From Eledone cirrhosa (lineage: Eukaryota), in the NCBI GenBank assembly GCA_964016885.1, contig OZ024743.1:321842001-321906000 (forward strand): DNA of 64,000 bases, read 5' to 3'. A program made the translations under genes and the position numbers. The notes beneath the pieces are model-generated. The model did not search any database. It had not been told where the DNA came from and saw only the letters and a list, made by a program, of their open reading frames with translations. Shown here piece after piece: positions 1 to 61,540 of the stretch (within the stretch, counting starts at the first letter, position 1; every line of letters begins with the position of its first letter).

Positions 1-3000
1 CATATATAAGTTGCAAATACGTGTATTATCCCAAAGTGAAAAACCAAGTTTTGCATCAAAGTGGTGATTTCAAAGTTTATTTATTTACACATGGTGGTGG
101 CGGTGATACAGAAATAAACGAAGGTTGACGATTGAGAAGGTTGACGAATGACGTCAGATTCTTCTACTTTCACTTCTGACAGCCAATTCCGTTGTAGTGC
201 CCCGTTTATAAATCTTTCACTGTTCTTATATAAAGATTCATTTGATTTGATGAAGAAGTTAAAAGCGAATATTTCCAAAATTAGATGGAATCATTATTGC
301 AGAATTTCACATAAATGCAGTCAACTGACGTGATAATGAAATAGTTTCAAACAAACCGTCCCTAGCTTATGCTGAAATTCTTATTCTAGACACCAATTAT
401 ATTGCAGTATTGCCACAACTGTCCAAAGTAATTTCTGCTAATGAAAGGTAACACTTTGAGAATGACCGTTACATTTGCATGAAATTTTTAGGTAACTTCT
501 TATGACGTCACAATAACAATTTGTAAATTTAGATTGGATGAATTCGTTTAGGTTTTATCTCCGCATATAATATATTCTTTGAATCAATTGCACTCGTGCG
601 TTCTCGCGTAATAGCTACATTGAGTATTGAAGGAGACAGGATAAATACTTAGACTGAGAGAAAGTTTAAAATATGTACTAGGAAACGTCCATTAGAGAAA
701 AATAAAATGCGTGAAAAGAAATGAGAAAATCGAAACGAAATGATCATAACTAGAAGACAAAAGAAAAAAATATAAGATGAAATGTAAAATTGTAAATAAA
801 GCCTGGACGAAGATACGGAGCGAACCGAACTAAAAATGTAAGCAGGAAGCCGACGGCATAGCAGCTCCTGCCGTTTCTACAGCTAGATCCGAACTCAGTT
901 CGGATCTAGCTGTCAAAACGGCCGGAGCTCAGCCACTCTACTACCCTAACTCTCGAGTACTTTGGTTGTTATGGTCCACCTGGTTACTAAACCACGCTTT
1001 CTTTCCTGTTAATTTGGGAGTATGAATGTTTAGCGAACGTTTTAAACTATCGAGAAAATAATAACTAAAATTAAATTGATATATATTTTATGAGTGAGGC
1101 TAACAAACATAAGACTTGTTATAGACCCAGTGAAATTAAATTATTTTACAAATAGTGGGCAAATGTTGGTGATCAACACGAAATAATTAGAAACACTTTC
1201 AAAGATAGTACTGTCTAAAATCATATCTATAGTCATTTAAATTGTCAGGCGATTATTCAATAGTTCCTTGTGGGTTATTTGGTAGCATATTAGACTAGGA
1301 CACTAGTGGTCACGTGTTCGTCTACTGTCAACCTTAACACGCTTCAGTTTTGAAGTAGATGCTTTTTTTTTTTTTTTTTTTAATAATTTTTAGGCGTGGC
1401 TTATGATATATACTTTGATTAAATATATTAGTTATGACATTTATTTATTTATATTTATGCATACACGAAGATGATATAGTTTACATCATATGTGTATTAG
1501 ATTCTTTACATTCTACAATAAAAGTTGATATCTAAAGCATATGTCATTCACATATATGTTCTTACTATTTCTCAATCTACACATTGATTATGTATCTAAG
1601 ATTAGCTAAGCATCCATACATACACTAACGACAATTTTGCAGAGTAAGGTAAACTCTTTATACGATTGTAAATATAATGGAAAATTTCGATAAAACTAAA
1701 GATCTTACCTGAACACTACAGCAAATGATGGAGACATTTCATTAACAAATAGGGACAGTCTGATTAAAAGCAAATAGTGGGAATTGAAAATGCGATGCTA
1801 TATAATTGTTAGAAGTGAATGAGGGCACGCGCAATCACATCGAACCTTCTCTGTAGACGATAAAATATAGCTACAAATATCCACATACTTAGTCCCGTTT
1901 ATAAATCTTTCACTGCTCTTATATAAAGGCTCATTTGATTTGATGACGAAGTTAAAAGCGAATATTTCCAAAATTAGCAGAATTTCACATAAATGCAGTC
2001 AACTGACGTGATAATGAAATAGTTTCAAACAAACCGTCCCTAGCTTATGCTGAAGTTCTTATTCTAGACACCAATTATATTGCAGTATTACCACAACTGT
2101 CCAAAGTAATTTCTGCTAATGAAAGGTAACACTTTGAGAACGATCGTTACATTTGCATGAAATTTTTAGGTAACTTCTTATGACGTCACAATAACAATTT
2201 GTAAATTTAGATTAGATGAATTCGTTTAAGTTTTATCAATCTATTTGACAAATGGAGTGGATTGGAATCGGCTGGAATGTCCATATAGTCTTATTTGTGA
2301 GAGAGGGAGAGGGCGTGTGAGACAGTGGTTGTGTACAGTTTGGTGTACAGTTTGTGTTCCGACCTGTTATATATGTATGTATTTTTTAAAGCTCCATATT
2401 CATTAACAAATTTTAATGCATTGGTATTGAAATGTGTAAAGGCATATGGCCTAATAGTTAGAGTAATCGTGCGTAAATGCTTCTTTCGTTAATTTCGTAT
2501 GGAAATCGAATATATAGGACTTTTGGCTAAATTTGAAAGCTTCTAACGAGGGGTTGAATTCTTCCACATTTCATCCTTAGTCTGTATCTCTGTACTTTCA
2601 TATTACTTATATTGAAAGCCCCATTATCTGTTTTCGTTTGCTCAATGTAAATATTACGTTATAGTTTTTCATATATTTGAGAAGATATGAAAGAAACTAT
2701 ATAAATATCTCCGCATATAATATATTCTTTGAATCAATTGCACTCGTGCGTTCTCGCGTAATAGCTACATTGAGTATTGAAGGAGACAGGATAAATACTT
2801 AGACTGAGAGAAAGTTTAAAATATGTACTAGGAAACGTCCATTAGTGAAAAATAAAATGCGTCATCGAATGAAAAGAAATGAGAAAATCGAAACGAAATG
2901 ATCATAACTAGAAGACAAAAGAAAAAAATATAAGATGAAATGTAAAAATGTAAATAAAGCCTCGACGAAGATACGGAGCGAACCGAACTAAAAATGTAAG

Positions 3001-4221
3001 TATCCCATGCAATAAAAATACACCACCTTAAACACTCGGCCACCTCGTTACCTAAAGTCCTGAAAATCTGTCACAAATATAAACTGATATATGAGAAAAT
3101 AGTTTATGAATGGGTTTCATGTGAAATTGGAGAATTGGAGGGTAGAAGAATAGCAGCATTTCAGGTTTCCCCATCTATATTAATTTGGGAGTAGGAAAAG
3201 AACGAGGAAGCCGACGGCATAGCAGCTCCTGCCGTTTCTACAGCTAGATCCGAACTCAGTTCGGATCTAGCTGTCAAAACGGCCGGAGCTCAGCCACTCT
3301 ACTACCCTAACTCTCGAGTACTCTGGTTGTGGTCCACCTAGTTACTTACCACGCTTTCTTTCCTGTTAATTTGGCAGTATGAATGTTTAGCGAACGTTTT
3401 AAGCTATCGAGAAAATAATAACTAAAATTAATTTGATATATATTTTATGAGTGAGGCTAACAAACATAAGACTTGTTATAGACCCAGTGAAATTAAATTA
3501 TTTTACAAATAGTGGGCAAAAGTTGGTGATCAGCACGAAATAATTAGAAACACTTTCAAAGATAGTACTCTCTAAAATCATCTCTATAGTCATTTAAATT
3601 GTCAGGCGATTATTGAATAGACCCTTGTGGGTCATTGGGTAGCATATTAGACTAGGACACTACTGATCACGTGTTCATCTACTGTCAACCTTAACACGCT
3701 TCTGTTTTGAAGTAGATGCTTTTTTTATTTTTTTGTAATTTTTAGGCGTGGCTTATGTTATATACTTTGATTAAATATATTAGTTATGACATATTTAATT
3801 ATTTATATTTATGCATACACGAAGACGATATAGTTTACATCATGTGTATCAGATTCTTTACATTCTACAATAAAAGTTGATATCTAAAGCATATGTCATT
3901 CACATATATGTTCTTACTATTTCTCAATCTACACATTGATTATGTATCTAAGATTAGCTAAGCATCCATACATACACTAACGACAATTTTGCAGAGTAAG
4001 GTAAACTCTTTATACGATTGTAAATATAATGGAAAATTTTGATAAAACTAGAAATCTTACCTGACACTTCAGCAAATGATGGAGACATTTCATTAACAAA
4101 TAGGGACAGTCTGATTAAAAGCAAATAGTGGGAATTGAAAATGCGATGCTATATAATTGTTAGAAGTGAATGAGGGCACGCGCAATCACATCGAACCTTC
4201 TCTGTAGACGATAAAATATAG

Positions 4222-4494
4222 CTACAAATATCCACATACTTAGTCCCGTTTATAAATCTTTCACTGTTCTTATATAAAGGCTCATTTGATTTGATGAAGA
4301 AGTTAAAAGCGAATATTTCCAAAATAGATACAATCATTATTGCAGAATTTCACATAAATGCAGTCAACTGACGTGATAATGAAATAGTTTCAAACAAACC
4401 GTCCCTAGCTTATGCTGAAGTTCTTATTCTAGACACCAATTATATTGCAGTATTACCACAACTGTCCAAAGTAATTTCTGCTAATGAAAGGTAA
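4222..4494 (+). pseudogene. Degenerate leucine-rich-repeat-like coding remnant inside the tandem unit (also ~200-450 and ~1890-2130)
   Basis: Manual translation: ...GSFDLMKKLKANISK...HINAVN*RDNEIVSNKPSLAYAEVLILDTNYIAVLPQL. LAYAEVLILDTNYIAVLP fits LxxLxxLxLxxNxIxxLP apart from one Ala; an in-frame stop is present. Confidence 0.35.
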
Positions 4495-6621
4495 CACTTT
4501 GAGAATGACCGTTACATTTGCATGAAATTTTTAGGTAACTTCTTATGACGTCACAATAACAATTTGTAAATTTAGATTGGATGAATTCGTTTAGGTTTTA
4601 TCAATCTATTTGACAAATGGAGTGGATTGGAATCGACTGGCATGCCGATATAGTCATAATGGTGAGAGAAGGGGATAGCGTGTGAGACAGTGGTTGTGTA
4701 CAGTTTGGTGTACAATTTGTGTTCCGACCTGTTATATATGTATGTAATTTTTACAGCTCCATATTTGTTAACAAATTCTTATTGCATTGGTATTGAAATG
4801 TGTAAAGGCATAATCGTGCGTCAATGCTTCTTTCGTTAATTTCGTATGGAAATCGAATATATAGGACTTTTGGCTAAATTTGACAGCTTCTAACGAGGGA
4901 TTGAATTCTTCCACATTTCATCCTTAGTCTGTATCTCTGTACTTTCATATTACTTATATTGAAAGCCCCATTATCTGTTTTCGTTTGCTCAATGTAAATA
5001 TTACGTTATAGTTTTTCATATATTTGAGAAGATATGAAAGAAACTATATAAATATCTCCGCATATAATATATTCTTTGAATCAATTGCACTCGTGCGTTC
5101 TCGCGTAATAGCTACATTGAGTATTGAAGGAGACAGGATAAATACTTAGACTGAGAGAAAGTTTAAAATATGTACTAGGAAACGTCCATTAGTGAAAAAT
5201 AAAATGCGTCATCGAATGAAAAGAAATGAGAAAATCGAAACGAAATGATCATAACTAGAAGACAAAAGAAAAAAATATAAGATGAAATGTAAAAATGTAA
5301 ATAAAGCCTCGACGAAGATACGGAGCGAACCGAACTAAAAATGTAAGTATCCCATGCAATAAAAATACACCACCTTAAACACTCGGCCACCTCGTTACCT
5401 AAAGTCTTGAAAATTTTTCACAAATATAAACTGATATATGAGAAAATAGTTTATGAATGGGATTCATGTGAAATTGGAGAAATGGAGGGTAGAAGAATCG
5501 CAGCATTTCAGGTTTCCCCATCTATATTAATTTGGGAGTAGGAAAAGAACGAGGAAGCCGACGGCTGAGCAGCTCCTGCCGTTTCTACAGCTAGATCCGA
5601 ACTGACTACAGCTAGATCCGAACTCAGTTCGGATATAGCTGTCAAAACGGCCGGAGCTCAGCCACTCTACTACCCTAACATAGTTTCAAACATAACCGTC
5701 CCTAGCTTATACTGAAATTCTTATTCTAGACACCAATTATATTGCAGTTTAACCATCACTGAGGATAGCGTATTAGATTAGGAAACTAGTGGTCACGCTT
5801 TCGACTGCTGTCAACCTCAACACGCTTCACTTTTGAAGTAGATGCTTTTCTCTTTTTTTTTTTCGTATTTTTTCTGCGTGGCTTATGACATCTACTTTCA
5901 TTAAATACTAGCAGAATTGTTCGGTCTTCTAAACATAGATTGGCATGTTTATCCCTCCTTAAATGTTCAACCCACGAAAGCCAAGACGATAGGGTTAAGT
6001 AAAAAGGCATTCGACAAACCGAACATGTATTTGTTGTGTATACGATGAAAGCAATAGTTACAGAGCAGTAAGCATGTGGGACTGCAGAGGTGGAGAGCAT
6101 GAAGGAATTTAGTTGGATACTTTTAAGGTTACAAATATCTACACAATTTGATATAGACCGAACTGTTATATCTGATGCCAAACGCCTCGGAGTTACTATT
6201 GGGATCACCATCAACAATTTCAAGGGATGTACGTTTAAGTCGGGATAATATAGTCTATAAAGAGAGGTAACTCCTCCAAAATACTAAAGAGTTGTCTCTT
6301 TTGAACATTGTAGACAGAATGACGTACTAACTGACAAAAAGGGATTAAAGTTTTAGTGAAAAAAACGCCCTTAACAACAGAATATTGCAACATAAAAGCT
6401 TTGAAGCAATTGCACTCGAGGAATAGCTACATTGAGGATAAATACTTAGATTGAAAGAAAGGTTAAAATATGTATTAGGAAACGTTGATTAGAAAACAAA
6501 GAGTGCGTGATCGAATGAAAGAAAATGACAAAATGTAAACGAACTGATGGAGACTAGAAGATAAAAGTAAAAATATGAGATGAAATGTAAAAATTACTGC
6601 AAAACTAAAAATTGTAAGTAT

Positions 6622-9370: not shown

Positions 9371-9990
9371 GGTAGCCGGTAATTTGACTCCTGGTAATGT
9401 CGCTCCCGATATTTTGACCTCCAGTCAATTTCCATCTCGATATTAGAAAAAAATAAGACGTTGAAATTCAACATTTTTATTATTATTATTTATTATCAGT
9501 TCAAGGGCAGTGGATTGGCAGTATCGGTAGAGCGTCGGACGGCATGCTTTGCTGCAAAGAGTTACAGCCCTTTATGATCTGAGTTCAAATCCCGCCAAGG
9601 TTAACTTTGTCTTTCATCCTTACGGGGTCGATAAAATAAAGTACCAGTCACGCACTGGGGTCGATTTAATCGATTTTCCCCTCCCCCAAAATTGCTGGCC
9701 TTGTGCCTATATAAGAAACCATTATTTATTATCAGTTCAAAACATCAAACCAATACAGTGTTTTAAACAAGTAAATATACCGTAACTATATGAAAAGCTA
9801 AAAAAACATTTCTAAAATCCATCTTATTTTCGGGATTATATCGCTCAATAATTATCTGCAGCCGTTTGTTTATATTTTTATACTTTTATTTGGTCTCGCA
9901 GATCTCACCTCGATCAAATTCATATATGTAATTCATTTCACCCACAAGTTTATTCCTTCTGCGGATACTGTTAAAAATGTGAGACATAGT
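9371..9990 (-). mobile_element. MULE (Mutator-like) DNA transposon remnant, interrupted by a SINE
   Basis: Terminal ~15-bp tandem subrepeats (CGGTAATTTGACTCC-like) at 9371-9440. The minus strand at ~9800-9925 reads EFDRGEICETK*KYKNINKRLQIIIERYNPENKMDF, like the C-terminus of animal MULE transposases. Confidence 0.45.
9505..9725 (+). mobile_element. tRNA-derived SINE, family A (octopod type)
   Basis: A-box-like TGGCAGTATCGG, B-box-like GAGTTCAAATCC, body ...CTTTCATCCTTACGGGGTCGATAAAATAAAGTACCAG, short ATT tail; many copies in the window. Confidence 0.85.
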
Positions 9991-10002
9991 GTATATATAT
10001 AC

Positions 10003-11023
10003 AGTGGTACCTTGACTTACGAGTTTAATTCGTTCCGTGACGGAGCTCGTAACTCAAATTACTCGTATGTCAAATCAATTTTCCCCATTGAAATGAATTA
10101 AAATGCCATTAATCCGTTCCGGGTCCCATAAAAAACACCGCAATTCTTTTCTTTTTTTTTTTTGTTTTGCGTGTTTTTAAATAAGAAAAATGTACTTATA
10201 TTAAATACCGAATATTGTATTAAAAAAAATACAATACAATAGAATCTACTGCAATAAACTGGTTTTATTAAGTATAATTGTTTCTACTTTTGGCACAAGA
10301 CCAGCAATTACCCAGTACATAGCTGGTACTTTATTTTATTGACCCCGTAAGGATGAAAGGCAAAGTTGACCTCAGCGGGATTTGAACTCAGATCGTAAAG
10401 GGACGTAACTATGCTGGAAAGCATGGCATCCGACTCTACCTATACCGCCAATCCACCACCCTTTATTAAGTATAATGCACATTTACATTGGAGATCAGAC
10501 GACTTGAAGATGCTGACGGAGGTGGAGGAGAAGGGCTGACCTGAATAATTGGATCTTATTCGCTGATTTTTGCCCTTTTCGCTACGCTTTCCTCACTTTT
10601 ATCTGCTGGGGTTTTCGATAAATACCTGTCCAATGAGGTTTGTTTTATCCTCCCACTCAGAATGTTTCTGAAATGAGTTAGGCAAGTGTCACTGAATAGC
10701 GCCGCCGTACGCCCAGTTACAACTTTTTCTTGGTGTTTCTTTTGAATAAAGTTTGAAAGTTTCTCCCACATTTCCAATATTTCCTTTATCTCACTTGTAG
10801 AGATAACCTCCTCCACCTCCCCCACGTCACCTACTTCCTGCAAAACCCCAGCGTGGAAGAAGCTGTGGCCTGTGGTTGTTTCTGAAACGGACTTTGAAAG
10901 ACTCGAACCCGAAGCGGCAGTGGTGGAAGAGATTGTATCCTTCGGCCTGGACATGGATGAAGGTGACATCAACGAGCTCATCGAGGAGCACTCCGAGGAA
11001 TTGACAACGGAGGAGCTAAAGGA
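10003..11023 (-). mobile_element. Tigger/pogo (TIGD1-like) DNA transposon 3' portion with an internally inverted segment
   Basis: TA+CAGTGGTACCTTGACTTACGAG TIR at 10003. Minus strand EEVISTSEIKEILEMWEKLS...LTHFRNILSGRIKQTSLDRY. The upstream transposase part AWKKLWP..DFERLEPE..EELTTEELKE lies on + at ~10850-11023. Confidence 0.8.
10279..10461 (-). mobile_element. SINE family A inserted in the Tigger element with a 15-bp TSD
   Basis: TSD TTTATTAAGTATAAT at 10264-10278 and 10462-10476. Confidence 0.9.
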
Positions 11024-15014: not shown

Positions 15015-15976
15015 TGATGGGATGACAGAGTTCTTTGAGATACTGGCTGGAGTGCTCCGGGAAGATACATTGACTCCCTACCTTTTTTTCATCGTAGTGG
15101 ACTATTGTATGCGCCTTGCACTGGAGAAACACCAGGACTCTGGCTTTACTGTAGCACCGGCTCAGAGCAGGAGAGTTAAGGCGAAAAAGATATCGGATGC
15201 TGAATTTGCCGACGACATAGTTTTGGTGACAAATACAGTGAAGGAGGCAGAGGATTTGATGCGGGATGTTGAGACTGTGTCGATGAGTGTGGGGCTGAGA
15301 ATGAATGAGACTAAAACAAAATATCTGGTAGAGAATGTTGAGAAGCCAGAGGGGATCACTAATGTAGGCGGGAAGCAGCTAGAATTGGTTGAGGACTTCC
15401 TGTATTTGGTAGCAAAGATTGGGAATACCGAAGATGATGTGGTTGAGAGGAAGTGCAAAGCCTGGGCGGCGTGCAACAGCTTGAGATCGGTGTCGAAGTC
15501 GGACCTTCGTAAAAACCTGAAAATCCGCCTCTTCATTGCTGTAGTGGAGTCTGTGCTGCTGTACGGGTCTGAGACTTGGACACTGACCAAGAAACTCACT
15601 CAGATGGTGGATGGGTACTACACGAGAATGCTGAGGATGGCTCTACACATTAATCAGTATACACAGAGGATGAAAATTCAGAGCTGTATGGGAGCCTCCC
15701 AAAAGTCAGCTCAAAAGTGACACAGAGGAGACTGAGGTTAGCTGGACATGCACACCGACATCCAGAGTTGACATTGCACTCAGTGCTCCTGTGGGAACCC
15801 CTACATTGACACACTGGAAGAGGAAGACCAAGGTTAACGTATGTTGAGGCCCTAAGGACAGACACTGGTCTGTTGTAGACGCAGGACATGGCAGCGATAA
15901 TGAGGGACAGAGACCGCTGGAGAGAACTCGTCCATGGATCTCGGGAATTTTACCCGCCCTAGAAAAAAAAAAAAAA
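15015..15976 (+). mobile_element. 5'-truncated RTE-clade LINE with poly(A) tail
   Basis: RT motifs GVLREDTLTPYLF, EFADDI, GLRMNETKTKY; RTE-typical ESVLLYGSETWTL and RRLRLAGH, GRGRPRLTY; A-tail at ~15963-15976. Confidence 0.85.
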
Positions 15977-16570: not shown

Positions 16571-17679
16571 CAGTTGCATTTATCTTGTATTATGTTCATA
16601 CGAGTTATCACCAAGTCACAACCAGTGACCTCAAGAGACAACAAGGTCCGCCATGTTCAAGAAAGAACATACATATTCACACATGCATCTTTAGTGTTTA
16701 GACTTGTGATGTACTTATATTGACAGAATCTTCCTTAGTATATGGGCAGTTCCCATTAATACTATCTTTTGTATTTCTCCTATACGTGGGTTTCCTGGGA
16801 TTTGCGATATGTAATCATTAGACCCCTTAGGTATCATTCCCAGAGCGCCTACAACCACTGGTATTGTTTTAGTTCTCAATTTCCACATTTTTCCAATTTC
16901 TATCTCCAGGTCCTTATACTTGCTCAATTTTTCAAATGTTTTTATAGATACATTCTTGTCTATTGGAACAGACATATTAATTAGCAGGCATACCCTCTTT
17001 TGAAAGTCTTTCAATATTATAGCAGGTCTGTTTGCATTTATTTTTCGGTCTGTTTGGATGCTAAAGTTCCACAAGATTGAGATGTGATCTTTTTCAAGTA
17101 TGGGAGGTGGTTGATGCTCCCACCAATTCTTTTGATGGCGCAGGTCAAAATGCTTACACATTATCCAATGTATGTATTGTGCAGCTCTGTCATGCCTGTT
17201 TAGGTATTCGGTTGGAGCTATAGGACTGCACATTGAAATTATATGGTCAATGGTCTCTGGTTGTTTTTTGCATACACGGCATAATGGGCTGCACCCATTT
17301 TTTATTATGTTGGCTTGGTAATTTTTTGTTGGCAGACACTGATCTTGTGCCGATATAATCAGTCCTTCAGTCTCCGATTTCAGTCCAGAGGATGCCAACC
17401 ACTGATGGGTTAAAGTTTTGTCAACATCAGGATTGTTAGCTCGCTCTGGGTATTTTCCATACAGAGGCTTTTCTTGCCATTTCTTAGCCAGTTTCTGTAG
17501 CAGTTCTTTCTTTGCAGTTACTTTTACCTGCTTTGCTTTTTCTGTGTTTTCCATTTCAGCAGTAAATGGGACTTCTGAAATTTGTAGTCCATTACTGTAT
17601 CTTTGTGCATCTTTTGTAATGGAATATGATCTTTTGATGCTTTCGTGTTTCAAAACGAGTTTGATCATCCAATCATGTG
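16571..17679 (-). mobile_element. 5'-truncated R4/Dong-like non-LTR retrotransposon (CCHC plus RLE) flanked by (TAA)n
   Basis: ORF 16715-17668: GLKSETEGLIISAQDQ, CRVC..ETIDHIISMC, RHD, NRPAII (PD mutated), KLSKYKDL, PVVVGALG. (TTA)n at both junctions (16554-16570, 17680-17703). Confidence 0.85.
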
Positions 17680-17916
17680 ATTATTATTATTATTATTATT
17701 ATTGAATGCCATGGTTGACGGAGGCTCGGCTCTGTAAGGTATAGTAATTTTTAACCGTTAAAACAATTGTAAATTGTTTAAAACTTGAACCAAATTGTTG
17801 ATAAAGACACCCTCCTCCTCGTGAGAGGGGTCTTTCTGTCCGTTATTTGGCCCTTCGGGGTTAAATAACCAGTTATTGGGGTTTTGTACCCAAAATTTCA
17901 TTTTAAACAAAAAAAC

Positions 17917-20013
17917 ATGGCTACGAAAAAGAAATTTCATACGTCACTCCCACTCATTCCGTCTTCTTCTTCCTCAATCATCACTACAGCAGAGAGAAGA
18001 TTGTCTCTCTCCCTCCCTTCTTTAAATGTGACTCTCTCCCTCCCTTCTCTTTCGCAAGCGACGAAAGAAAAGAAAAGTCTCGTGCAAAGCGTGCAAGGTT
18101 TCTCCACGACGACGACGACAGCGACGAAACAGGTGTGCGGGAAATACGAAAACCCAGTTCATTCGTCTGACGTCAGGAATAATAGCAGTAGCAGCCGTAA
18201 TAACAACAGCAACAGTGACAATGAAAACAACAGTAGCAGCCGCAACAGCATCACCAGCAGCATAAACAACAACAGCATTAGCAGCAGCAACACCAACAAC
18301 AACCACAGCAACAGCGGCGGAGGCAGTAGTCGTAGTACCTGCAGCAACAACAAAAGTACCAGCAGCTCTGACGACAACAACAACAGCAGAGAAAAACCAA
18401 TCTCATTTGCAGGTATTGCGAAAAACCTGGAAACAATCCTCATAACAAATGAGGAATTAGAGGAAGCGAAGAAGATGGTGACAAAGAACGGACACCGAGC
18501 AATCTGCAAGGCAGCGAAAAATTTTTTCGAAACCCAAGAGCACTGTACGGTCACGTACCGTACAGTAAGTACAAAATCCCGTAGGGTGGAAAGAGCCACA
18601 GAGGCCCAAATACAAAAAGCCTTGGGGTCTGTGTGGCAGAGGAAAACGTACATCACCCGAGGCAAAAAATACGCCACCGTAGACGTACTTTTTGCCACAC
18701 CCCAGGAGGCAAAGGCCCAATCAGTAGTGACCCTAAGGAGCGAGGAAATGGTGTTGGTGCCCTCCTACTGCGGGCAAAAAATTGTGAGGGTCAAACTGAC
18801 CCACGTCCCCCCCGGAATGACCCCTTCTTGGCTGGCCGCGTCTGTCCTCGTCGGAATCGAGGACAAAACAACTGTACTGCAAGTACAGAAAAAAGTAAGA
18901 GAAGATTGGGTCGGCTCCTCCATTGAGATGCTAATCCAAACCAACCAGGAGTGCATCGAAGCTATCCCGGATGTGATAGACTTCGATAACGGCACTCAAC
19001 TGCCCATAAGTGTTGAGGGCAAACGCCCGAAATGCTTTCGCTGTGGATCGAAGACTCACCTCAGGGCCTTCTGCAACGAGAAGACCCTGAGAAAGGAGAA
19101 AACCCCCCTCCTCCCGAATCCGGTTCCACGGCTACCAGCAACAGGACAAGCGGCAACCAGGAACGATAGGTCCGTGGCACCCATACCCACTCCACGGAAA
19201 TCAAAGACAGCAGCAGCAGTGGAAATATTAACAACAACAACAGCAATACCAAATGCAGCTGCAACAGAGACTCCAGTGCAAACATCACCAACAACAACAA
19301 GTGAAAGAGTGGAGCTGGTACCCCTCCCCGACCTTACAGAATCAGACATGGAGTGTGAGGTGGGAGAGGGATGGCAAAAGGTCTCAAGAAGGCACAAACG
19401 CAGAAGCAGCGCATCGTCGCCTTTGAAAAGGGAGGAAAGAAATGAGAAAAGGGTAAAGTCTACTGCAAAGAGACCCACAGCAGCAACACCACCAACACCA
19501 TCACCACCCACACCAGCACCACCATCACCACCGGCGACAACCCCACCGCCAACAACACCTTCAACACCACCACCACAAGCACCAACATCGCAAACACAAC
19601 AACAAAACACACACACCCAGCAACAACGACAAGAAAATAGCAGAACCACACCCCACCCCCAGAAAAACAAATGCACGGCAATAAACACACACAACAAGAA
19701 ACTAATGACTTACATAATTGAACACACAGACATTTCACAACAGGACTACATAATACCAGCACCAATCAAAACGCCAACTAACATAAGACTGCTAAAAATA
19801 GCACAGAAACAATACACAAACATTAAAACGAAATTCCCCAACGCAGTTGGTGATTTCAGGGACCTAGGAGGAACCATTAATCGAAGAGTATATTCAGACA
19901 TTCTCTTAGAAGAGCCGACGACCAGCCGAAGGGACGATTCAACGGTCCCTTCACCAGACGATCAAGTGAAAAGGGATGTAAAAACCATCCCTCCTCTACC
20001 AAAAATACGGTAA
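17917..20013 (+). CDS. Tx1 ORF1 (gag-like nucleic-acid-binding protein, CCHC knuckle), 698 aa from the first ATG
   Basis: Ser/Asn-rich N-terminus, ISFA motif, CFRCGSKTHLRAFC knuckle, Pro/Thr-rich linker, small C-terminal domain. Confidence 0.9.
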   Translation: MATKKKFHTSLPLIPSSSSSIITTAERRLSLSLPSLNVTLSLPSLSQATKEKKSLVQSVQGFSTTTTTATKQVCGKYENPVHSSDVRNNSSSSRNNNSNSDNENNSSSRNSITSSINNNSISSSNTNNNHSNSGGGSSRSTCSNNKSTSSSDDNNNSREKPISFAGIAKNLETILITNEELEEAKKMVTKNGHRAICKAAKNFFETQEHCTVTYRTVSTKSRRVERATEAQIQKALGSVWQRKTYITRGKKYATVDVLFATPQEAKAQSVVTLRSEEMVLVPSYCGQKIVRVKLTHVPPGMTPSWLAASVLVGIEDKTTVLQVQKKVREDWVGSSIEMLIQTNQECIEAIPDVIDFDNGTQLPISVEGKRPKCFRCGSKTHLRAFCNEKTLRKEKTPLLPNPVPRLPATGQAATRNDRSVAPIPTPRKSKTAAAVEILTTTTAIPNAAATETPVQTSPTTTSERVELVPLPDLTESDMECEVGEGWQKVSRRHKRRSSASSPLKREERNEKRVKSTAKRPTAATPPTPSPPTPAPPSPPATTPPPTTPSTPPPQAPTSQTQQQNTHTQQQRQENSRTTPHPQKNKCTAINTHNKKLMTYIIEHTDISQQDYIIPAPIKTPTNIRLLKIAQKQYTNIKTKFPNAVGDFRDLGGTINRRVYSDILLEEPTTSRRDDSTVPSPDDQVKRDVKTIPPLPKIR

Positions 20014-20048
20014 GTGGTCTTTCCCATCTTTTCCACTCTATTTTAAAC

Positions 20049-23000
20049 ATGACCTCACTCAGAATAGGCAGCATAAATGCGCGTGGCTTGGGGTCGTCAT
20101 GGAAGCAGGGTCACCTGCTCAACGACCTCAGGTCACTAAACATAGATGTAGTGGCCATCAGCGAGACCAGAATCTCCGAAGCACGGGCCTTCGCACCGAT
20201 CTTCGGCGGCTACGATGTGTACGCATCTCCCAGCCGTCCTGGATCGGGTGGAGGAGTTGCTGTGCTTTTTCGGAGAGGTTTGGATCTCGCCATACGGGCC
20301 ATCTTCCTGGACCCAGAGGGTAAGCTGGTGGTGCTGGACGTGACCAGCGGAGACGGGCAAGCTTTCAGGCTAGTGGCCGTCTATGCCCCGACAGGAGCAG
20401 GGCGGCCTGATTTCTTCCGGCGTCTGGAGACCTTTCTTGGAACGTCGCGCTCTTTAGTGTTAGTGGGCGACTGGAACGGGATCTTAGATGCACGCTGGGA
20501 CTGTGTGGGATTAGCGGATAGGGGTGGAGGGTGCAAGAGCCTCACCAACCTGCTCAGGCGTTTTGAACTGTCTGACAGGTACCGATTGGATTTCCCGAAT
20601 GTGCCAATGTGGACTTGGACAAACCGCATAGGGTCATCCAGATCATATCTAGATAGAGTATTTTGTAGGGAAATAGATAGGTCTAGCATAGGCTGTCCAC
20701 AATTCAAGATAGTCAGCTACACGGACCACAAATTCGTGATCTGTGTGCTTGACTTAGATAGGCTTCATAGACGAGGACCCGGCTACTGGAAGCTAAACGC
20801 GTCCTTACCAGCGCGCAAGGCCTACAGAGACCGGATTAGCGAACTAGTTAAGCGGGCGTTGACGGGGGCCATCGTCAACAACAAGTGGTGGTTTGCTCTG
20901 AAAAGAGCGATTAGAATAGAATCGATTAGGTTTAGTAAGGCTTTAGCAATAGAGAAAAATAGAGCAGAGGGAGAACTAGTTAGAAAATTAGACGAGGCGC
21001 TTAGCAAAGGCATTGCGACCGACGTGCTTGCGGCGAAATTGGCCCTTGACCAATTCTTCAATGCAAAGCACGAAGGCTGCGTTGTCAGAGCTAGGGTGCG
21101 TGCTCTCAGACACGAGGGGACGAAAGCCGTTCAATGGGCCCGAGTGGCGGAGGCGCGTCGTGGCAACAAAGCCACGATCCGGTCTTTGGTGGACCACGAC
21201 GGGCGCATGCTACTCGATCCCGGGCAAATGTGTGAAGCTTTTCAGCGACACTTCGCTCAGCTGTTCGGGGGCAGCGGGGGGCCGGGTAGAGGGATGGACT
21301 TTAGTGTCTACCTCGACGGGCTGCCGCGGCTCTCGGCCACTGAGGCGAGGTGTTGCGAAAAGCCGATAACAGCCGCTGAAGTACGGGAGGCAATGACTGG
21401 CTGCACAAGGGGTAAATCGCCTGGTTTGGATGGTCTGCCCTATGAACTTTACGTACAGATGCCAGACTTGTTCGGAGGCCTCTTGGCGGACGTCTACTGC
21501 AACTGGCAACAGAACGGGAGAATTCCCAGTTCTGTGAGCCGAGGAGCGGTGGCACTGCTGAGAAAGGATCCGAACAAGGGGGATAACATAGACAATTTCC
21601 GGCCCATAACTCTGCTAAACACAGAGTTTAAGATTTTGGCCAAGGTGCTAGCAAAGAGGTTGGCGCTTGTCGTTGGTGGTCTGGTGGGAGAGGCGCAGAC
21701 ATGCGCCATTCCCGACAGATCCATCCACGACAACCTCCACCTCATGCGATACATCGTAGAGAGGGTAGCTAGGGAACCTGGCACGGGTGGGTCCTTGATC
21801 AATTTAGATCAGTCGAAAGCTTTCGATAGGGTCGACCATCGTTACCTAGCGGCAGTCCTGAGGGCGGCTGGCTTTGGGCCCGTCTTCAGAGGCTGGATCG
21901 CTGCCATGCACAGCGACATCTGCTCTGTGGTGAGAGTGAACGGTCACCTGTCGGAACCGTTCAACATCATGCGCTCGGTCCGCCAAGGATGTCCCCTCTC
22001 GTCCCTCTTGTACGTATTGACTCTCGAGCCATTACTGCACAAACTGGAGACGTTGAGGGGAGTCCCGCGCGAACTAGGATGCGGAAGATCCGTGTCAGCA
22101 TATGCGGACGATGTCACCGTAGTGGTGTCGAACGCCAAACACATCGAGGCGATCGGCACTACACTAAGAGAATACGAAGCGGTGACAGGAGCAATGATCA
22201 ACCAGGAAAAGTCAGTGGGCCTGCAGCTCGGCACCTGGAGAGGCAGGTCCATGCCGTCCAACAGCGTCGTCGGGCGCTGGACGGACGGACCGGTTAAATT
22301 GCTAGGGGTCTGGTTCGGTCCGGACCTCCAGACGGACAAAAACTGGGACGAGGTGACGAGCAGGGTGGCTTCTCTCACCCAGAAATGGGCGGAGAGGAAG
22401 CTATCCCTGAAAGGTCGAGCGGAGGTGGCTAACGCGTACATCGCGTCTGTCATCTGCTACCGCCTAACCGTCGTACCTTGTCCTAAGCCTCGCCTGACTG
22501 CGCTGGAGCGTTTGCTCTTTCGCTTTTTGTGGAAGGGACGTGCTCCGATGGTCAGGCGGTCCATCTGTTGTCAACACCCGCTACGTGGAGGGCTGGGCAT
22601 GCCGTGGCTGATGATGCGCAGGCACGCGCTCAGGCTACGACATCTCCACCTCTTCCTCGACGGTGATCAGGTGTGGTCGCCGTTTGCTAGACGCGTTTTT
22701 CCCCAGCTCGTTTCCTTGACGGAGCTGCAGTCCTGGGTCAAGCGAAGACCGAGAGGGAGCGCCTGGAGACTGGAATGTCTTCAGGCGCTCACAGCCCTCG
22801 ACCAATCGGGCAATGTGATCGGTGGAAACTCCACCTCGGCGTTCTATAGAGGATTAGTGGAGGGGAAGAGCGACGACGTACTTGGGGAAACTCTAGGCGT
22901 CGACGAAAATCAACTAGCCAATCTCTTCGGAAGAACTTTCGGGCCAGGGCCTATGGACAACTTCCAGAAATCTCTGGCCTGGCAGTGCTACCGAGGAGCC

Positions 23001-23468
23001 TTGCCAGTTCGGGATAAACTCTACAGGCATGGAGGTGCCGTCAGCCGGGCATGTCCGAGATGCGCGCAGGGCGACGAAACCGTCCTGCACGCACTCGTCC
23101 AGTGTCCGAAAATTGCTGACTTGTGGGTTTATGTCGAACACCTGCTGTCGCGTTTAGGACGGATCCAGCTATCATCTGAGTCTATCGTGAGGATTGCCCC
23201 GCCCTCCTCCTTTAGCCGGGAAGGGCAGGCAGTTTTTATCTCTCTGGTGGCCATGGCGAAAGAGATAGTATGGTGGACACGTTTGAAAGGGCTGAAGACG
23301 AGCACTTACCTCTTCGGTGATGCTCTGATTGACTTTTTCAAATTTCATTTGAAAAGGAAAATCAGAGTAGAGAAGGAAGTGCTCTCTTCCCAGCATTTTG
23401 TTGAAAGATGGGTGAGAGAAGCAAGAATGGCCCGAGTGAATGGGCCGACTCTGAGTATATATCTGTAA
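20049..23468 (+). CDS. Tx1 ORF2: AP endonuclease, reverse transcriptase, CCHC zinc finger (1139 aa)
   Basis: SINARGL, ISET, VYAP, GDWN, YLDR, TDHK; GKSPGLDGLP, FRPITLLN, DQSKAFDRV, RQGCPLS, YADD; CPRC..ETVLHALVQC. Confidence 0.97.
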   Translation: MTSLRIGSINARGLGSSWKQGHLLNDLRSLNIDVVAISETRISEARAFAPIFGGYDVYASPSRPGSGGGVAVLFRRGLDLAIRAIFLDPEGKLVVLDVTSGDGQAFRLVAVYAPTGAGRPDFFRRLETFLGTSRSLVLVGDWNGILDARWDCVGLADRGGGCKSLTNLLRRFELSDRYRLDFPNVPMWTWTNRIGSSRSYLDRVFCREIDRSSIGCPQFKIVSYTDHKFVICVLDLDRLHRRGPGYWKLNASLPARKAYRDRISELVKRALTGAIVNNKWWFALKRAIRIESIRFSKALAIEKNRAEGELVRKLDEALSKGIATDVLAAKLALDQFFNAKHEGCVVRARVRALRHEGTKAVQWARVAEARRGNKATIRSLVDHDGRMLLDPGQMCEAFQRHFAQLFGGSGGPGRGMDFSVYLDGLPRLSATEARCCEKPITAAEVREAMTGCTRGKSPGLDGLPYELYVQMPDLFGGLLADVYCNWQQNGRIPSSVSRGAVALLRKDPNKGDNIDNFRPITLLNTEFKILAKVLAKRLALVVGGLVGEAQTCAIPDRSIHDNLHLMRYIVERVAREPGTGGSLINLDQSKAFDRVDHRYLAAVLRAAGFGPVFRGWIAAMHSDICSVVRVNGHLSEPFNIMRSVRQGCPLSSLLYVLTLEPLLHKLETLRGVPRELGCGRSVSAYADDVTVVVSNAKHIEAIGTTLREYEAVTGAMINQEKSVGLQLGTWRGRSMPSNSVVGRWTDGPVKLLGVWFGPDLQTDKNWDEVTSRVASLTQKWAERKLSLKGRAEVANAYIASVICYRLTVVPCPKPRLTALERLLFRFLWKGRAPMVRRSICCQHPLRGGLGMPWLMMRRHALRLRHLHLFLDGDQVWSPFARRVFPQLVSLTELQSWVKRRPRGSAWRLECLQALTALDQSGNVIGGNSTSAFYRGLVEGKSDDVLGETLGVDENQLANLFGRTFGPGPMDNFQKSLAWQCYRGALPVRDKLYRHGGAVSRACPRCAQGDETVLHALVQCPKIADLWVYVEHLLSRLGRIQLSSESIVRIAPPSSFSREGQAVFISLVAMAKEIVWWTRLKGLKTSTYLFGDALIDFFKFHLKRKIRVEKEVLSSQHFVERWVREARMARVNGPTLSIYL

Positions 23469-53334: not shown

Positions 53335-56300
53335 CTACAGGCTGATATAGAGAGAAGGCCCATTCACTCGGGCCATTCTCGCCACTTTCACCCACCTTTC
53401 ATAAAACTTGCTGGGGTACAGCACCTCTCTCTCCATCCTGATTCTTCTTCCAAAGTGGTATTTGAAAAAAAGAATCAGTTGTTGGCCGGAGAGAAAGGTG
53501 TCTGACCTCAGCCCTTTCAACCTTGTCCACCATACAACCTCTTTCGCCATAGCTATCACACAAAGGAAAACCGCCTCTCCTTCGTTTTTGAAGGAGGGTG
53601 GCGGTTTGATCATGACAATGGACTCGGTGGTCAACTGGATTGGTCCCACCCGCGACAATAGTCGTTCTACATAGCCCCACAGGTCAGTGACGCCCGGGCA
53701 GTGTATGAATGCGTGCGCGACGGTTTCTTCGTCTCGCACGCACCTCGGACAGATCTTTTTTGCAGGGTCCCTGCCCGGGCGCCCATGTCTGTAGAGCTTG
53801 TCTCGAACTGGTAGAGCTCCTCGGTAGCACTGCCAGGCCAGGGACTTTTGGAAGTTGTCCATCGGTCCCGGGCGGAAGGTCCTACCGAACAGACTGGCCA
53901 GTTCATCTTCCTCCACGCCTAGAGTTTCACCGAGCGCGTCGTCGCACTTGCTGCGGACCAACCCTCTATAGAATGACGAAGTGGAGTCTCCACTGATCGC
54001 CGGGTCCGCCTGCCAGAGGGCTGTGAGCGCCTGAGCACATTCGATGTGCCAGTCGCTCATTTTCCTCGGTCTCTGCTTGACCCAGGACTGCAGCTCGGTC
54101 AGCGAGACGAGTCGTGGGAAGGCTCGCCTCACGAACGGGGCCCACACCGGTTGTCCGGTGAGGAATACGTAGAGATGCCGCAGCCTGAGCGCGTGTTTGC
54201 GCATCGTCAACCACGGCATCCCCAGCCCTCCGTTAGAAGGGTGTTGGCAGCAGATGGATCTTCTTACCAAAGGAGCCCGCCTCTTCCAAAGGAATCGGAA
54301 GAGGGCGCGCTCCATTTTGGCGAGCGTTTTGGCTGGACAAGGCACGACGGTCAAGCGGTAGTAGATGGCGGACGCTATGAAAGTGTTCGCCACCTCCGCT
54401 CGACCTTTCAAGGATAGTTTGCACTCGGCCCACTTCTGGGTGAGTGCAAACACCTTGGTCGTCACTTCGTTCCAGTTCTTCTCCACCTGGAGGTCCGGAC
54501 CAAACCAGACCCCGAGCAGCTTTACCGGTCCTTCCGTCCAGCGTCCGACGACGCCATCGGAAGGCATCGGTCTGCCTCTCCACGATCCGAGTTGCAAACC
54601 GATGGACTTGTCCCGGTTCAGCTTCGCTCCTGTGAGACATTCGTATTCCTTTAGTAAGGTGCCGACTTCCTCGATTTGCGAGGCGCTCGACACCATTACT
54701 GTCACGTCGTCGGCGTAGGCCGACGCCGCTTTCCGCAGTCCCGGTTCCAGAGGGATGCCCTGCAATAGCTCCAGCTTCCGCAGTAGTGGCTCGAGAGTCA
54801 GTACGTACAGAAGGGAGGAGAGAGGGCATCCCTGTCGAATGGATCGCGTAATATGGAACGGCTCCGAGAGGTAACCGTTCACCTTGACCCTTGAGCAGAT
54901 GTTGCTGTTGTGCATTGCAGCAATCCAGCTCCTGAACACGGGTCCGAAGCCTGCCGCCTCGAGCACCGCATCCAGGTAACGATGGTCAACCCTATCGAAA
55001 GCCTTAGACTGATCCAAGTTGATCAGGGCCCCACCGAAGCCGGGTTTACACCCTACCCTCTCTATGATGTATCGCATGAGGTGGAGGTTGTCGTGTATGG
55101 ACCTGGTCGGGATCGCGCATGTCTGCGCTTCTCCCACCAGGTTCTCGACGACAAGCGCCAGCCTCTTTGCCAACACCTTGGCCAAAATCTGTAACTCTGT
55201 GTTTAGCAGAGTTATGGGCCGGAAGTTGCCTATGTCATCCCCCTTATTCTCGTCCTTCCTGATTAGTGTGACCACGCCCCCGGTTACAGAACTGGGAATT
55301 CTCCCGTTCTGTTGCCAGTTGCAGTAGACCGCTTCCAGGAGACCGGAGAATAAGTCCGGCATTGCTACGTAAAATTCGTAGGGTAGACCGTCGAGACCTG
55401 GAGATTTGCGTTTGCCGCATTGGCTCAGCGCGTCCCCTATCTCAGTGGCTGAAATCGGCTTTTCGCAGAACTTCGCCTCGCTGTCCGAGAGTCGCGGTAG
55501 GCCGTCGAGGTATGGACCGAAATCCATAGCCTCTCCCGGCGCGCCGCTCCCCCCGAACAGCCGAGCAAAGTGCTGCTTCGGCTCACGTATCACGCGTCCG
55601 TTTTGGTCCTTCAAAGACTGAATCGTGGACTTGTTGCCACTTTTTGCCTCCGTCACTCGGGCCCAGCTAACAGCTTTGGCTCCCTCGTTTCCCAGAGCAC
55701 GTATTTTGCTTCTGACAACGCAGCCCTCGTGCTTTGCGTCGAAGAACTGGTCCAAGGCCGTTCTCGTTGCTAGCACGCTGGCTACGTTGCCACTTCTAAT
55801 TGCCTCTTCTACTTTATCTACCAGTTCCTTCTCGGTTCTATTTCTATCTAACGCTAATTCTTTACTAAAAACTATCGAGTCTAATCTAACTGCCCTCTTG
55901 AGAGAGTACCACCATCTGTTGTTGACAATGGCCCCTGTCAAGTGCTGTTTAACTAAAGTGCTAATCCGTCTACTGTAGGCTTTGCTTGTCGGTAACGACA
56001 AGTTCAGCTTCCAGTAGCCTGGTCCTTGTCTATGGGTTCTATCAAGGTTCGCCTTGCAGGTCACTAGTTTGTGATCTGAATAGGCAACCATGAACATTTG
56101 TGGACAGCTTAACATGTCCCTATCCTTATTTCTAACTAGAACCCTATCTAGGTACGATCTAGATGTTCCGCTACGATTACTCCACGTCCACAGTGGCGCA
56201 GTCGGAAAATCTAGTCGATATCTATCGGCCAGGTCAAATCGGTCGATTAACTGTTTGAGGCTGTTACACCCCCCTTTATCGGGACATGCTCCCACATAGT

Positions 56301-56751
56301 CCCAACGTGCATCTAGGATTCCATTCCAGTCCCCCACTAAAAGCAAGGAGCGGGACGTTCCCAGAAAAGTCTCTAGACGTTTGAAGAAGTCTGACCGCGG
56401 TGTCCCGGATGGGGCATATGCGGCCACCAGCCTGAACGCTCCACCTTCACTACCGTCAACGTCTAGGACCACCAGTCGACCCTCCGGGTCCAGATGTACC
56501 GTCTGTGTTACGAGGCCCAGGTGTTTCCGCAGCAAAACGGCAACTCCGCCCCCACCCCCCGGTTGACAGAGAGATGCGTAGATCTCAAAGTCATCGAAGA
56601 TGGGGGCCAGCTGTCGCTCGCCGTGGATCCTGGACTCGCAAATGGCTACCACATCCAAACTGTGCGACCTGAGGTCGTTTAAGAGTTTGCCCTGTTTCCA
56701 GGGCATCCCCAGGCCGCGTACGTTCACACATCCAACTCTTATATTGGCCAT
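53335..56751 (-). CDS. Tx1 ORF2 APE-RT-ZF (1138 aa; short in-frame deletion at EPKQ^HFARL)
   Basis: CVNVRGL, GDWN, SDHK, YADD, CPRC..HAFIHC. Confidence 0.95.
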   Translation of the reverse strand: MANIRVGCVNVRGLGMPWKQGKLLNDLRSHSLDVVAICESRIHGERQLAPIFDDFEIYASLCQPGGGGGVAVLLRKHLGLVTQTVHLDPEGRLVVLDVDGSEGGAFRLVAAYAPSGTPRSDFFKRLETFLGTSRSLLLVGDWNGILDARWDYVGACPDKGGCNSLKQLIDRFDLADRYRLDFPTAPLWTWSNRSGTSRSYLDRVLVRNKDRDMLSCPQMFMVAYSDHKLVTCKANLDRTHRQGPGYWKLNLSLPTSKAYSRRISTLVKQHLTGAIVNNRWWYSLKRAVRLDSIVFSKELALDRNRTEKELVDKVEEAIRSGNVASVLATRTALDQFFDAKHEGCVVRSKIRALGNEGAKAVSWARVTEAKSGNKSTIQSLKDQNGRVIREPKQHFARLFGGSGAPGEAMDFGPYLDGLPRLSDSEAKFCEKPISATEIGDALSQCGKRKSPGLDGLPYEFYVAMPDLFSGLLEAVYCNWQQNGRIPSSVTGGVVTLIRKDENKGDDIGNFRPITLLNTELQILAKVLAKRLALVVENLVGEAQTCAIPTRSIHDNLHLMRYIIERVGCKPGFGGALINLDQSKAFDRVDHRYLDAVLEAAGFGPVFRSWIAAMHNSNICSRVKVNGYLSEPFHITRSIRQGCPLSSLLYVLTLEPLLRKLELLQGIPLEPGLRKAASAYADDVTVMVSSASQIEEVGTLLKEYECLTGAKLNRDKSIGLQLGSWRGRPMPSDGVVGRWTEGPVKLLGVWFGPDLQVEKNWNEVTTKVFALTQKWAECKLSLKGRAEVANTFIASAIYYRLTVVPCPAKTLAKMERALFRFLWKRRAPLVRRSICCQHPSNGGLGMPWLTMRKHALRLRHLYVFLTGQPVWAPFVRRAFPRLVSLTELQSWVKQRPRKMSDWHIECAQALTALWQADPAISGDSTSSFYRGLVRSKCDDALGETLGVEEDELASLFGRTFRPGPMDNFQKSLAWQCYRGALPVRDKLYRHGRPGRDPAKKICPRCVRDEETVAHAFIHCPGVTDLWGYVERLLSRVGPIQLTTESIVMIKPPPSFKNEGEAVFLCVIAMAKEVVWWTRLKGLRSDTFLSGQQLILFFKYHFGRRIRMEREVLYPSKFYERWVKVARMARVNGPSLYISL

Positions 56752-56784
56752 GTTGGTGCTGAAAAGTTAAAAGAGGAAAAGAGA

Positions 56785-58701: not shown

Positions 58702-58936
58702 AACGTAATCAAAATTTTACAATATTTTTTCCAAGATACGATGGAGAAAAATTTTTTAAATGGATATTCCGCCCCTGAAGGGGCGAAAATGAGTTGATCC
58801 ACCAGCTGAAGGTCCAGACGGGTGGTCAAGTTACACAATGATATAAAATTGAACTAAAAACTCACGTTTTTTTCTTACATAAATTAACGGAAACTTCTCC
58901 GCGAAGTGACACACGACTGATAGAGAGATAGATAGA

Positions 58937-60586: not shown

Positions 60587-60769
60587 AACCAGTTTAAAAC
60601 AAGTTTGACCGTTACTCAATAAAGTATTCTAAACTTAGAGTAGTAGAGTATGGCTAAATTATAAAGTGTCGGGACCCGACGGCTGAGGTCTTGCCGTTTC
60701 AACAGCTAGTTCCGGACTCATTTGTTGAAACGGCAAGAGCCCAGCCGTCGGGTCCCGAGTCTTTATAAT
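60587..60769 (-). repeat. Diverged relative of the palindrome element from the 2.35-kb unit
   Basis: TCGGGACCCGACGGCTG...CAGCCGTCGGGTCCCGA hairpin plus the reverse-complement ACTCTACTACTCTAAG flank. Confidence 0.75.
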
Positions 60770-61051: not shown

Positions 61052-61250
61052 TATCATGACAATCGGGACGACTCTGACTTCATGGCAGTTCCAAATCCTT
61101 TTTAACTCCCACTTCAAGTCCTGGTATCGGTTAATTTTCTCCCTCTCCTTTTCTTGCACTCTCGTGTCAAATGGGCAGGCTACATCTACAATTAGGCGCG
61201 ATCTTTTTTCCTTGTCCAAAACCACCAGGTCAGGCCTATTATTAAAAACC
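61052..61250 (-). mobile_element. R4/Dong-like RLE fragment (different subfamily)
   Basis: NNRPDLVVLDK..IVDVACPFD..KINRYQDLKWE..VVPIV. Confidence 0.75.
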
Positions 61251-61253
61251 CAC

Positions 61254-61343
61254 ATCGTACCGTCTTGTACCGTATGTAATATTTTTCTTGATGTCAGCCC
61301 TTGTGGCCAATAAAGAAATCATCATTATTATTATTATTATTAT
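61254..61343 (+). mobile_element. 3'-terminal stub of a Tx1 element with (ATT)n tail
   Basis: CGTACCGTCTTGTA...GCCCTTGTGGCCAATAAAGAAATC followed by ATT repeats matches the 3' ends of copies 1 and 2. Confidence 0.75.
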
Positions 61344-61540
61344 TTGGCAGTATCGGTAGAGGGTCGGACGCCATGCTTTGACGCATAGAGTTACGTCCCT
61401 TGCCATTCTGAGTTCAAATCCCGCCGAGGTTAACTTTGCCTTTCATCCTCACGGGGTCGATGAAATAAAGTATCAGTAATGCACTGGGTAATTGCTGGCC
61501 TTGTGCCAAAAGTAGAAACAATTATTATTATCATTATTAT
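61344..61540 (+). mobile_element. SINE family A with (ATT)n tail
   Basis: Match to the other copies. Confidence 0.88.

Follow-up and report, generated by a model that had tools for sequence, protein, structure and literature searches.

In the Ty1/Copia element EVD of Arabidopsis, a conserved splice donor has been shown experimentally to generate a messenger for the structural protein (shGAG splicing), and U1 also guards the full-length RNA (PMC5580714). Human L1, a long interspersed nuclear element (LINE), gives rise to spliced RNAs as well, and spliced L1 copies amount to up to ~1.8% of full-length ones (PMC5860796). Here, we analyzed a 64,000-nt stretch of the Eledone cirrhosa genome (contig OZ024743.1, positions 321,842,001 to 321,906,000; hereafter the window), which carries several L1-type LINEs with a first and a second open reading frame, ORF1 and ORF2, and found that a splice donor motif is kept at the end of ORF1 in all seven related families compared.

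This arrangement would work most like the shGAG splicing of Copia, without making the elements members of that long terminal repeat (LTR) family. Both have a conserved U1 donor where the structural ORF ends (7/7 families here), whereas EVD is an LTR element with a short intron coupled to early termination (PMC5580714), and the elements described here are non-LTR, with a predicted 3.45 kb intron and a predicted long-range helix. Human L1 resembles them in its bicistronic layout, short inter-ORF spacer and cis preference (PMC5860796, PMC5381506). By contrast, the splicing that yields human SpIREs takes place within the 5' untranslated region (UTR) or between the 5' UTR and ORF1 and produces dead copies (PMC5860796), and a survey of vertebrate L1 elements reports no shared spacer structure, its main text containing no match to 'splice' (PMC5381506). 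Drosophila TART likewise lacks LTRs; its splice sites have been mapped, and subgenomic RNAs have been proposed to set its ORF1:ORF2 levels, but in the accessible account the splicing concerns antisense transcripts and no donor is described at the ORF1 stop (PMC1636488). The Tx1-clade LINEs that target microsatellites, namely Kibi in (TC)n, Koshi in (TTC)n and crocodilian elements in (TTCC)n/(TTTC)n, share the two-ORF L1-type layout (APE endonuclease, reverse transcriptase (RT) and zinc finger), microsatellite insertion and head-to-tail arrays; the targets here differ, being (ATT)n and (ATCT)n, and the accessible text on those LINEs mentions neither a donor at the ORF1 end nor a helix (PMC4494074). 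Octopus vulgaris has 13 recently active L1-Tx1 families, described in a text whose accessible part contains no match to 'splic' (PMC13282606). A search of the openly available literature returned no report of a splice donor placed where the ORF1 of a LINE stops, nor of a helix around ORF2.

The donor at the end of ORF1

The window holds four families: c1 (copies 1 and 2, a single family with 89-94% DNA identity), c3 (copy 3), c4 (copy 4) and c6 (copy 6). Three further families from outside the window set, E, G and H, were added, and in a tree built without named Tx1 references all seven form one clade (support 100/99). The junctions in the window are as follows, a slash marking the predicted cut.

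20007..20015, +: copy 1, donor motif ACG/GTAAGT, GT at 20010, phase 2
26152..26192, +: copy 2, a damaged member of family c1, with its donor (26155) and the spacer
50976..51023, -: copy 3, donor at 51020, phase 2; the 45-nt spacer is the 5' arm of the predicted helix
56752..56795, -: copy 4, donor GG/GTGAGT at 56792, phase 1; the spacer is the 5' arm of the predicted helix
62861..62902, +: copy 6, donor at 62864, phase 0, and spacer

An earlier note on this DNA had proposed that five junctions carry a consensus donor, and all five motifs lie at the coordinates it gave (CG/GTAAGT at 20010, AG/GTAAGT at 26155, 51020 (-) and 62864, and GG/GTGAGT at 56792 (-)). Its description of the spacers also holds: the ORF2 ATG follows the donor by 39, 38, 45, 41 and 39 nt in copies 1, 2, 3, 4 and 6, the spacers are 74-79% C/T, and AGs stand at 53, 52, 30 and 34 nt in copies 1, 2, 6 and 4. 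The ORF1 phases of 2, 2, 2, 1 and 0 were confirmed as family traits rather than copy damage, the phase-0 form of c6 being an offshoot one base shorter than related phase-1 copies. The five junctions are not all independent, however, since copies 1 and 2 belong to the same family, which leaves four independent junctions in the window. Similarly, the argument that stop-codon context cannot explain the motif is correct for the motif as a whole, but the stop (TAA, TAG or TGA) overlaps it in 6/7 families and supplies part of it.

When conservation was checked across genomic copies, as the earlier note had proposed, the donor was present in 7/7 families. The junction reads AAG/GTAAGT in phase 1 in family E, GAG/GTAAGT in phase 2 in family G, where the ATG is merely 28 nt away, and AAG/GTAGGT with a TAG stop in family H (single copy seen). 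Across the seven families, just five of the 26 columns around the donor are invariant, namely -1G, +1G, +2T, +5G and +6T (G/GT..GT); positions +3 and +4 vary solely between A and G, and no invariant column flanks the motif. The invariant columns correspond to the positions critical for pairing with U1. For comparison, 5/30 (17%) of fourfold-degenerate ORF2 sites are invariant over seven families and 13/77 over six, and pairwise silent-site divergence among the five families compared is 0.25-0.52. Because the invariant columns are the U1-critical bases, against 17% of silent sites, the motif is read as selected and U1-matching. By this comparison of sequences, the donor is a real feature that is selected for more than its stop codon, and control linked in some way to splicing or U1 is likely at this site. 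These statistics are tempered by the relatedness of the families within one clade and by the overlap of the stop with the motif in 6/7 of them.

Beyond the clade, a donor-like motif at the ORF1 stop was observed in 1/17 readable junctions of distant relatives (24-31% identity). The single case, a metagenome relative with 25% identity (L175:1925-2002), carries GG/GTGAGTAA where its ORF1 stops, with the phase (1) that c4 has, and shows no helix. A query with the N-terminus from a lineage of 42-44% identity (P0002, P0005) retrieved solely families c6 and E. Separately, a second strong donor-like site, CCG/GTAAGT, occurs at window position 53055 (-), near the 5' end of copy 3.

Candidate acceptors and the predicted helix around ORF2

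We tentatively favor the reading that the donor allows ORF2 to be removed in its entirety (~3.45 kb), by joining to an acceptor located at the stop of ORF2 or beyond it, giving an ORF1-only mRNA, with a predicted helix gating the choice; it may well be right, although we stop short of expecting it. The features on which it draws are listed below.

17704..23730, +: copy 1, family c1, a young full-length Tx1-like LINE in an (ATT)n microsatellite; 40/40 scored genomic matches are 100% identical across the junction
17917..20013, +: copy 1 ORF1, 698 aa, with a putative RRM-like region and a putative CCHC knuckle; the TAA that ends it falls within the donor
20009..20038, +: copy 1, 5' arm of the predicted helix, made of the donor and C/T tract
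20049..23468, +: copy 1 ORF2, 1139 aa, with APE endonuclease, RT and zf-RVT; candidate intron body
23475..23502, +: copy 1, purine-rich 3' arm, predicted to pair with spacer and donor; -40.7 kcal/mol, 0/500 shuffles
23618..23645, +: copy 1, putative distal acceptor of the 3' UTR, a T tract and a CAG ending at 23645; best of 264 AGs by a home-made score
23719..23724, +: copy 1, terminal AATAAA in the 3' tail common to the families
29774..29801, +: copy 2, 3' arm; a distal acceptor-like site lies at 29921-29933
47508..47548, -: copy 3, the TAG of ORF2 as candidate acceptor, together with the 3' arm; -44.3 kcal/mol, 0/500 shuffles
53294..53337, -: copy 4, ORF2 TAG (candidate acceptor; immediate stop in phase 1) and 3' arm; -37.9 kcal/mol, 0/500 shuffles

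The ORF2 stop and 3' arm of copy 6 are found ~2.3 kb past the window end (L128).

Two properties of the junction are consistent with ORF2 as an intron. The donor is present in 7/7 families though the stop shifts in phase and identity (TAA, TAG, TGA), and the cut always falls just 5' of the ORF1 stop, so that ORF1 would stay whole. At the other end, ORF2 terminates in TAG followed by G in 6/7 families. Joining the donor to this TAG would bring the earliest stop in the donor's own phase in 5/6 TAG families, after 0-2 further codons (0 in c4, G and H, 1 in E and 2 in c6) as opposed to 3-81 in other phases; c4 (phase 1) is set apart from G and H (phase 2) by a compensating base. Family c1, the only one whose ORF2 ends in TAA, has the strongest 3' UTR acceptor score, and splicing at 23645 in copy 1 would give a stop after 19 codons.

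The C/T tract of the spacer is better explained by the computed pairing as the 5' arm of a predicted 25-40 bp helix, with a purine arm starting at the ORF2 stop, than as the tract of a nearby acceptor. Duplex energies were computed between the spacer and 60 nt at the ORF2 stop, with 500 shuffles of the 3' arm as background. Values of -40.7 (c1), -44.3 (c3) and -37.9 kcal/mol (c4) were each reached by 0/500 shuffles; family E gave -34.6 kcal/mol (9/500) and a younger c6 copy -33.6 kcal/mol (5/500). The cognate site was the best or tied-best of ~550 sequence windows in c1, c3, c4 and E. In minimum-energy folds of the whole 3.6 kb ORF2 region, the helix formed in 5/5 families folded, in full in c1, c4 and E and as the donor-side half alone in c3 and c6. 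The families preferred their own spacer and arm partners over swapped ones (2/5,040 permutations), a test that overstates independence since the families are related, and for the G spacer the c1 arm was a better partner than its own arm. The 3' arm of c1 and that of c3 are predicted to pair across the whole GTAAGT, like a U1 decoy, and in the other families the donor is only partly paired. A local hairpin of the GGAGCAC/GTGCTCC type within the 3' arm appears in the folds of G, E and c3 and can compete for the same bases. Outside the clade, the helix was absent in 6/6 distant relatives tested, one of which (L169) is cut at an internal stop; two more had no 3' end. As a separate observation, G-type junctions occur with two different 3' arms (L325, L326), the rarer pairing better (-29.8 versus about -24 kcal/mol), which hints at recombination between families.

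Under the proposed mechanism, ORF1-only mRNA would be produced alongside unspliced RNA, the form from which new genomic copies are made. U1 would bind the donor while ORF2 is still under transcription. Emergence of the 3' arm would then allow the full helix to cover the donor, and the RNA would stay unspliced, serving as the source of the ORF2 protein (ORF2p) and as the transposition template. Alternatively, the local 3' UTR hairpin would leave the donor free near the acceptor, leading to splicing and extra ORF1 protein (ORF1p). In its fullest form, which we consider possible but doubtful, the entire reverse-transcriptase gene would be a spliceosomal intron, and a helix spanning the 3.4 kb range with a U1-mimicking 3' arm would choose, molecule by molecule, between ORF1-only mRNA and full-length template. 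If true, a non-LTR element would here follow a subgenomic strategy resembling that of retroviruses.

Several observations weigh against ORF2 being spliced out in this way. Regarding the acceptor, none of 68 shared AG columns is strong in all families (best minimum score 10.5). The acceptor at the stop is absent in c1 and has a pyrimidine-poor tract in c6 and E, a competing AG lies 7 nt upstream of the ORF2 TAG in c3, c4 and G, and in c4, c6 and E the best-scoring AG sits 30-36 nt from the donor. Family c3 fails the phase test (27 codons), although with an AAG located 7 nt upstream the reading frame would end at the ORF2 stop, and in a second c6 copy the stop comes sooner in phase 1 than in phase 0, the copy's own; the phase match, ~0.02 by a hand binomial, overstates independence because the families are related. 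Regarding the helix, it is weak in the window copy of c6 (-29.1 kcal/mol, 36/500 shuffles), where the cognate site is not the best among the ~550 sequence windows, in G (-24.4 kcal/mol, 37/500) and in H (-31.7 kcal/mol, 70/500), and modelled masking of the donor is small in c6, G and H. Regarding RNA, contigs of runs X6 and X7, which are of unknown kind, span the c1 junction unspliced, which speaks to the presence of the unspliced form only; contigs of run X1 gave no cover there. No joint starting at the donor was found among the 15 listed of 2,034 contig joints, and none of 30 variant junctions from five families was an ORF1-only retrocopy, for which trans-mobilised examples would readily span the junction. 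The absence of spliced copies nevertheless fits splicing of ORF2, as cis copying would not extend to an RNA that lacks ORF2.

Alternative explanations of the junction

A first alternative is that U1 binds the donor and no splicing follows, so that U1 shields the full-length transcript against early cleavage and polyadenylation or directs its export, and is later released by the helix. A strong donor without a single conserved acceptor, the lack of spliced copies and the unspliced X6 and X7 contigs would all follow, and in EVD U1 blocks premature termination (PMC5580714). However, c1 and c4 contain no AATAAA or ATTAAA between the donor and the terminal signal and hence have little to suppress, which weakens this explanation, and it leaves unexplained why the cut always precedes the ORF1 stop and why phase-matched stops occur at the ORF2 end. 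We consider U1 binding without splicing unlikely.

A second alternative regards the helix itself as the functional unit, in translation or in ribonucleoprotein (RNP) assembly. It would cover the re-initiation spacer and bring the AUG of ORF2 next to the ORF2 stop, so that ORF2p is limited or kept near its own 3' tail, and the donor-like bases would survive as helix and stop context. The predicted helix does connect the vicinity of the AUG with the stop codon, c1 and c3 have a fully paired donor, and termination and re-initiation is the proposed route to ORF2 in human L1 (PMC5381506). Such a helix would, however, tolerate compensatory change at the donor, yet the U1 match is kept in c4, c6, E, G and H, where the strand opposite the donor varies and pairs poorly. 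This explanation, too, seems improbable to us.

Neutral inheritance, in which the motif would be the by-product of an arginine or glycine codon and a stop in one ancestor, draws on the overlap of the stop with the motif in 6/7 families of one clade and on the scarcity of such a motif among distant relatives (1/17). Set against it are the five invariant bases compared with 17% silent-site invariance (~1e-4 if independent, by hand estimate) and the persistence of the motif through frame changes with no invariant flanking column, and we regard it as very improbable.

The earlier note had put forward a mini-intron of 30-53 nt whose removal would fuse ORF1 in frame to ORF2 and so make ORF2. An in-frame first AG does exist in c1 (53 nt, CAG) and c6 (30 nt, TAG), and families G and H have an in-frame AAG, which is their first AG and belongs to a conserved Arg codon; high-scoring YAGs also occur in the spacers of c4, c6 and E. 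A frame-restoring YAG is thus the first AG in just 2/7 families. As the note itself had recognized, copy 3 offers no usable AG (in c3 the first AG is missing or, at 61 nt, out of frame) and the copy 4 AG at 34 nt is out of frame; family E behaves likewise. Introns of 30-36 nt are moreover very short for most animals. We searched for retrocopies with precise intron loss, another of the note's proposals, and found none among ~2,450 junction copies, comprising exact copies plus variants (exon end followed by non-canonical sequence) of 1,521 + 10 in c1, 606 + 13 in c3 and 301 + 1 in c4; the canonical totals are for these three families alone. Together with two variants from E and four from G, 30 variant junctions were read and 0/30 were spliced, 29 being point changes or small indels and one adjoining a satellite. 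The search patterns covered acceptors with any following sequence other than G-N-A (c1), N-N-A (E, G, c3) or N-N-N-A (c4) and included the joins that the note had proposed for c1 and c4, with c6 outside the search. Cis copying is expected for a spliced RNA from which ORF2p is made, so that the failure to find spliced copies, in comparison with the ~1.8% in human L1 (PMC5860796), counts against the mini-intron, which we consider scarcely credible.

Some related observations were made during these searches. At one locus (L346, G000:C5:21848353 onward), a c3-type ORF1 fragment stops precisely at the donor position and adjoins a 21-nt satellite in register with the AG of its unit; it was rejected as a spliced retrocopy, as the satellite array continues for at least 29.6 kb. 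An ORF2-only RNA starting in the C/T tract is disfavored, given that 30/30 loci picked by the c1 ORF2 N-terminus alone keep the ORF1 end. Copy 2 contains a direct duplication of ~207 nt (window 26167-26578) that takes in the C/T tract along with codons 1-61 of ORF2; a 5-nt microhomology at its join disfavors the duplication as a sign of such an RNA start.

Genomic setting and meaning

By their sequence, the elements file under the L1 group and likely belong to the Tx1 clade, as the microsatellite-targeting type. Pfam Exo_endo_phos, RVT_1 and zf-RVT were found in ORF2 of copies 1 and 4, and the best solved-structure relative of ORF2 is L1 ORF2p (E 3.5e-52). ORF1 of copy 1 has no Pfam match, with CX2CX4HX4C visible in its sequence and Atlas look-alikes carrying zf-CCHC, RRM and ZCCHC3 domains at 0.89-0.93. 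Among the copies read, without a genome-wide count, the target repeat follows the tree, with (ATT)n for c1, c6 and E and (ATCT)n for c3, c4, G and H. All seven families have a common 3' tail ending near CCYYTGTGGYYAATAAA. Head-to-tail arrays are formed in the window by copies 1 and 2 (17704-30080) and by copies 5, 4 and 3 in that order (47290-60590); elsewhere, many junction copies stand in tandem arrays with a spacing of 5.8-6.1 kb, and family E shows ten successive junctions 5.84 kb apart (G000:C1:423.36-423.42 Mb).

Other repeats also occupy the window. Positions 61060-61315 were considered as a new Tx1 family and rejected, being a chimera in which 181 nt from a different abundant repeat are joined to a Tx1-type 3' tail and (ATT)n. 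A dispersed repeat of ~190 nt with a B-box-like motif and an (ATT)n end, which we take to be a tRNA-derived short interspersed nuclear element (SINE), occurs at 61316-61530, 44100-44318, 36987-37180, 33270-33464, 10274-10463 and 9482-9659. Fragments of two other LINE types lie at 15022-15720 (+) and 16715-17668 (-), with a weak RVT_1 match and a 317-aa ORF without a Pfam match, which presumably resembles a restriction-like endonuclease tail. A tandem duplication of ~2.4 kb with 94.7% identity spans 844-5679. In the protein databases, the start of an Octopus sinensis tectonic-3-like protein model (P0049, XP_036360308.1) resembles the ORF2 N-terminus (short 64% match), reflecting either exonisation or an annotation slip.

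LINEs require far more ORF1p than ORF2p, and how this ratio is controlled from a bicistronic RNA is debated, even for human L1. A donor and a helix that bracket ORF2 offer a concrete, testable answer for a very active clade, three of whose families together have more than 2,400 junction copies. A helix linking the start and stop regions of ORF2, even if nothing is spliced, has no counterpart in the LINE literature searched. In addition, host transcripts could be captured by the thousands of strong donors that lie on the sense strand. If ORF2 is indeed spliced out, non-LTR elements would have reached the same solution as Copia.

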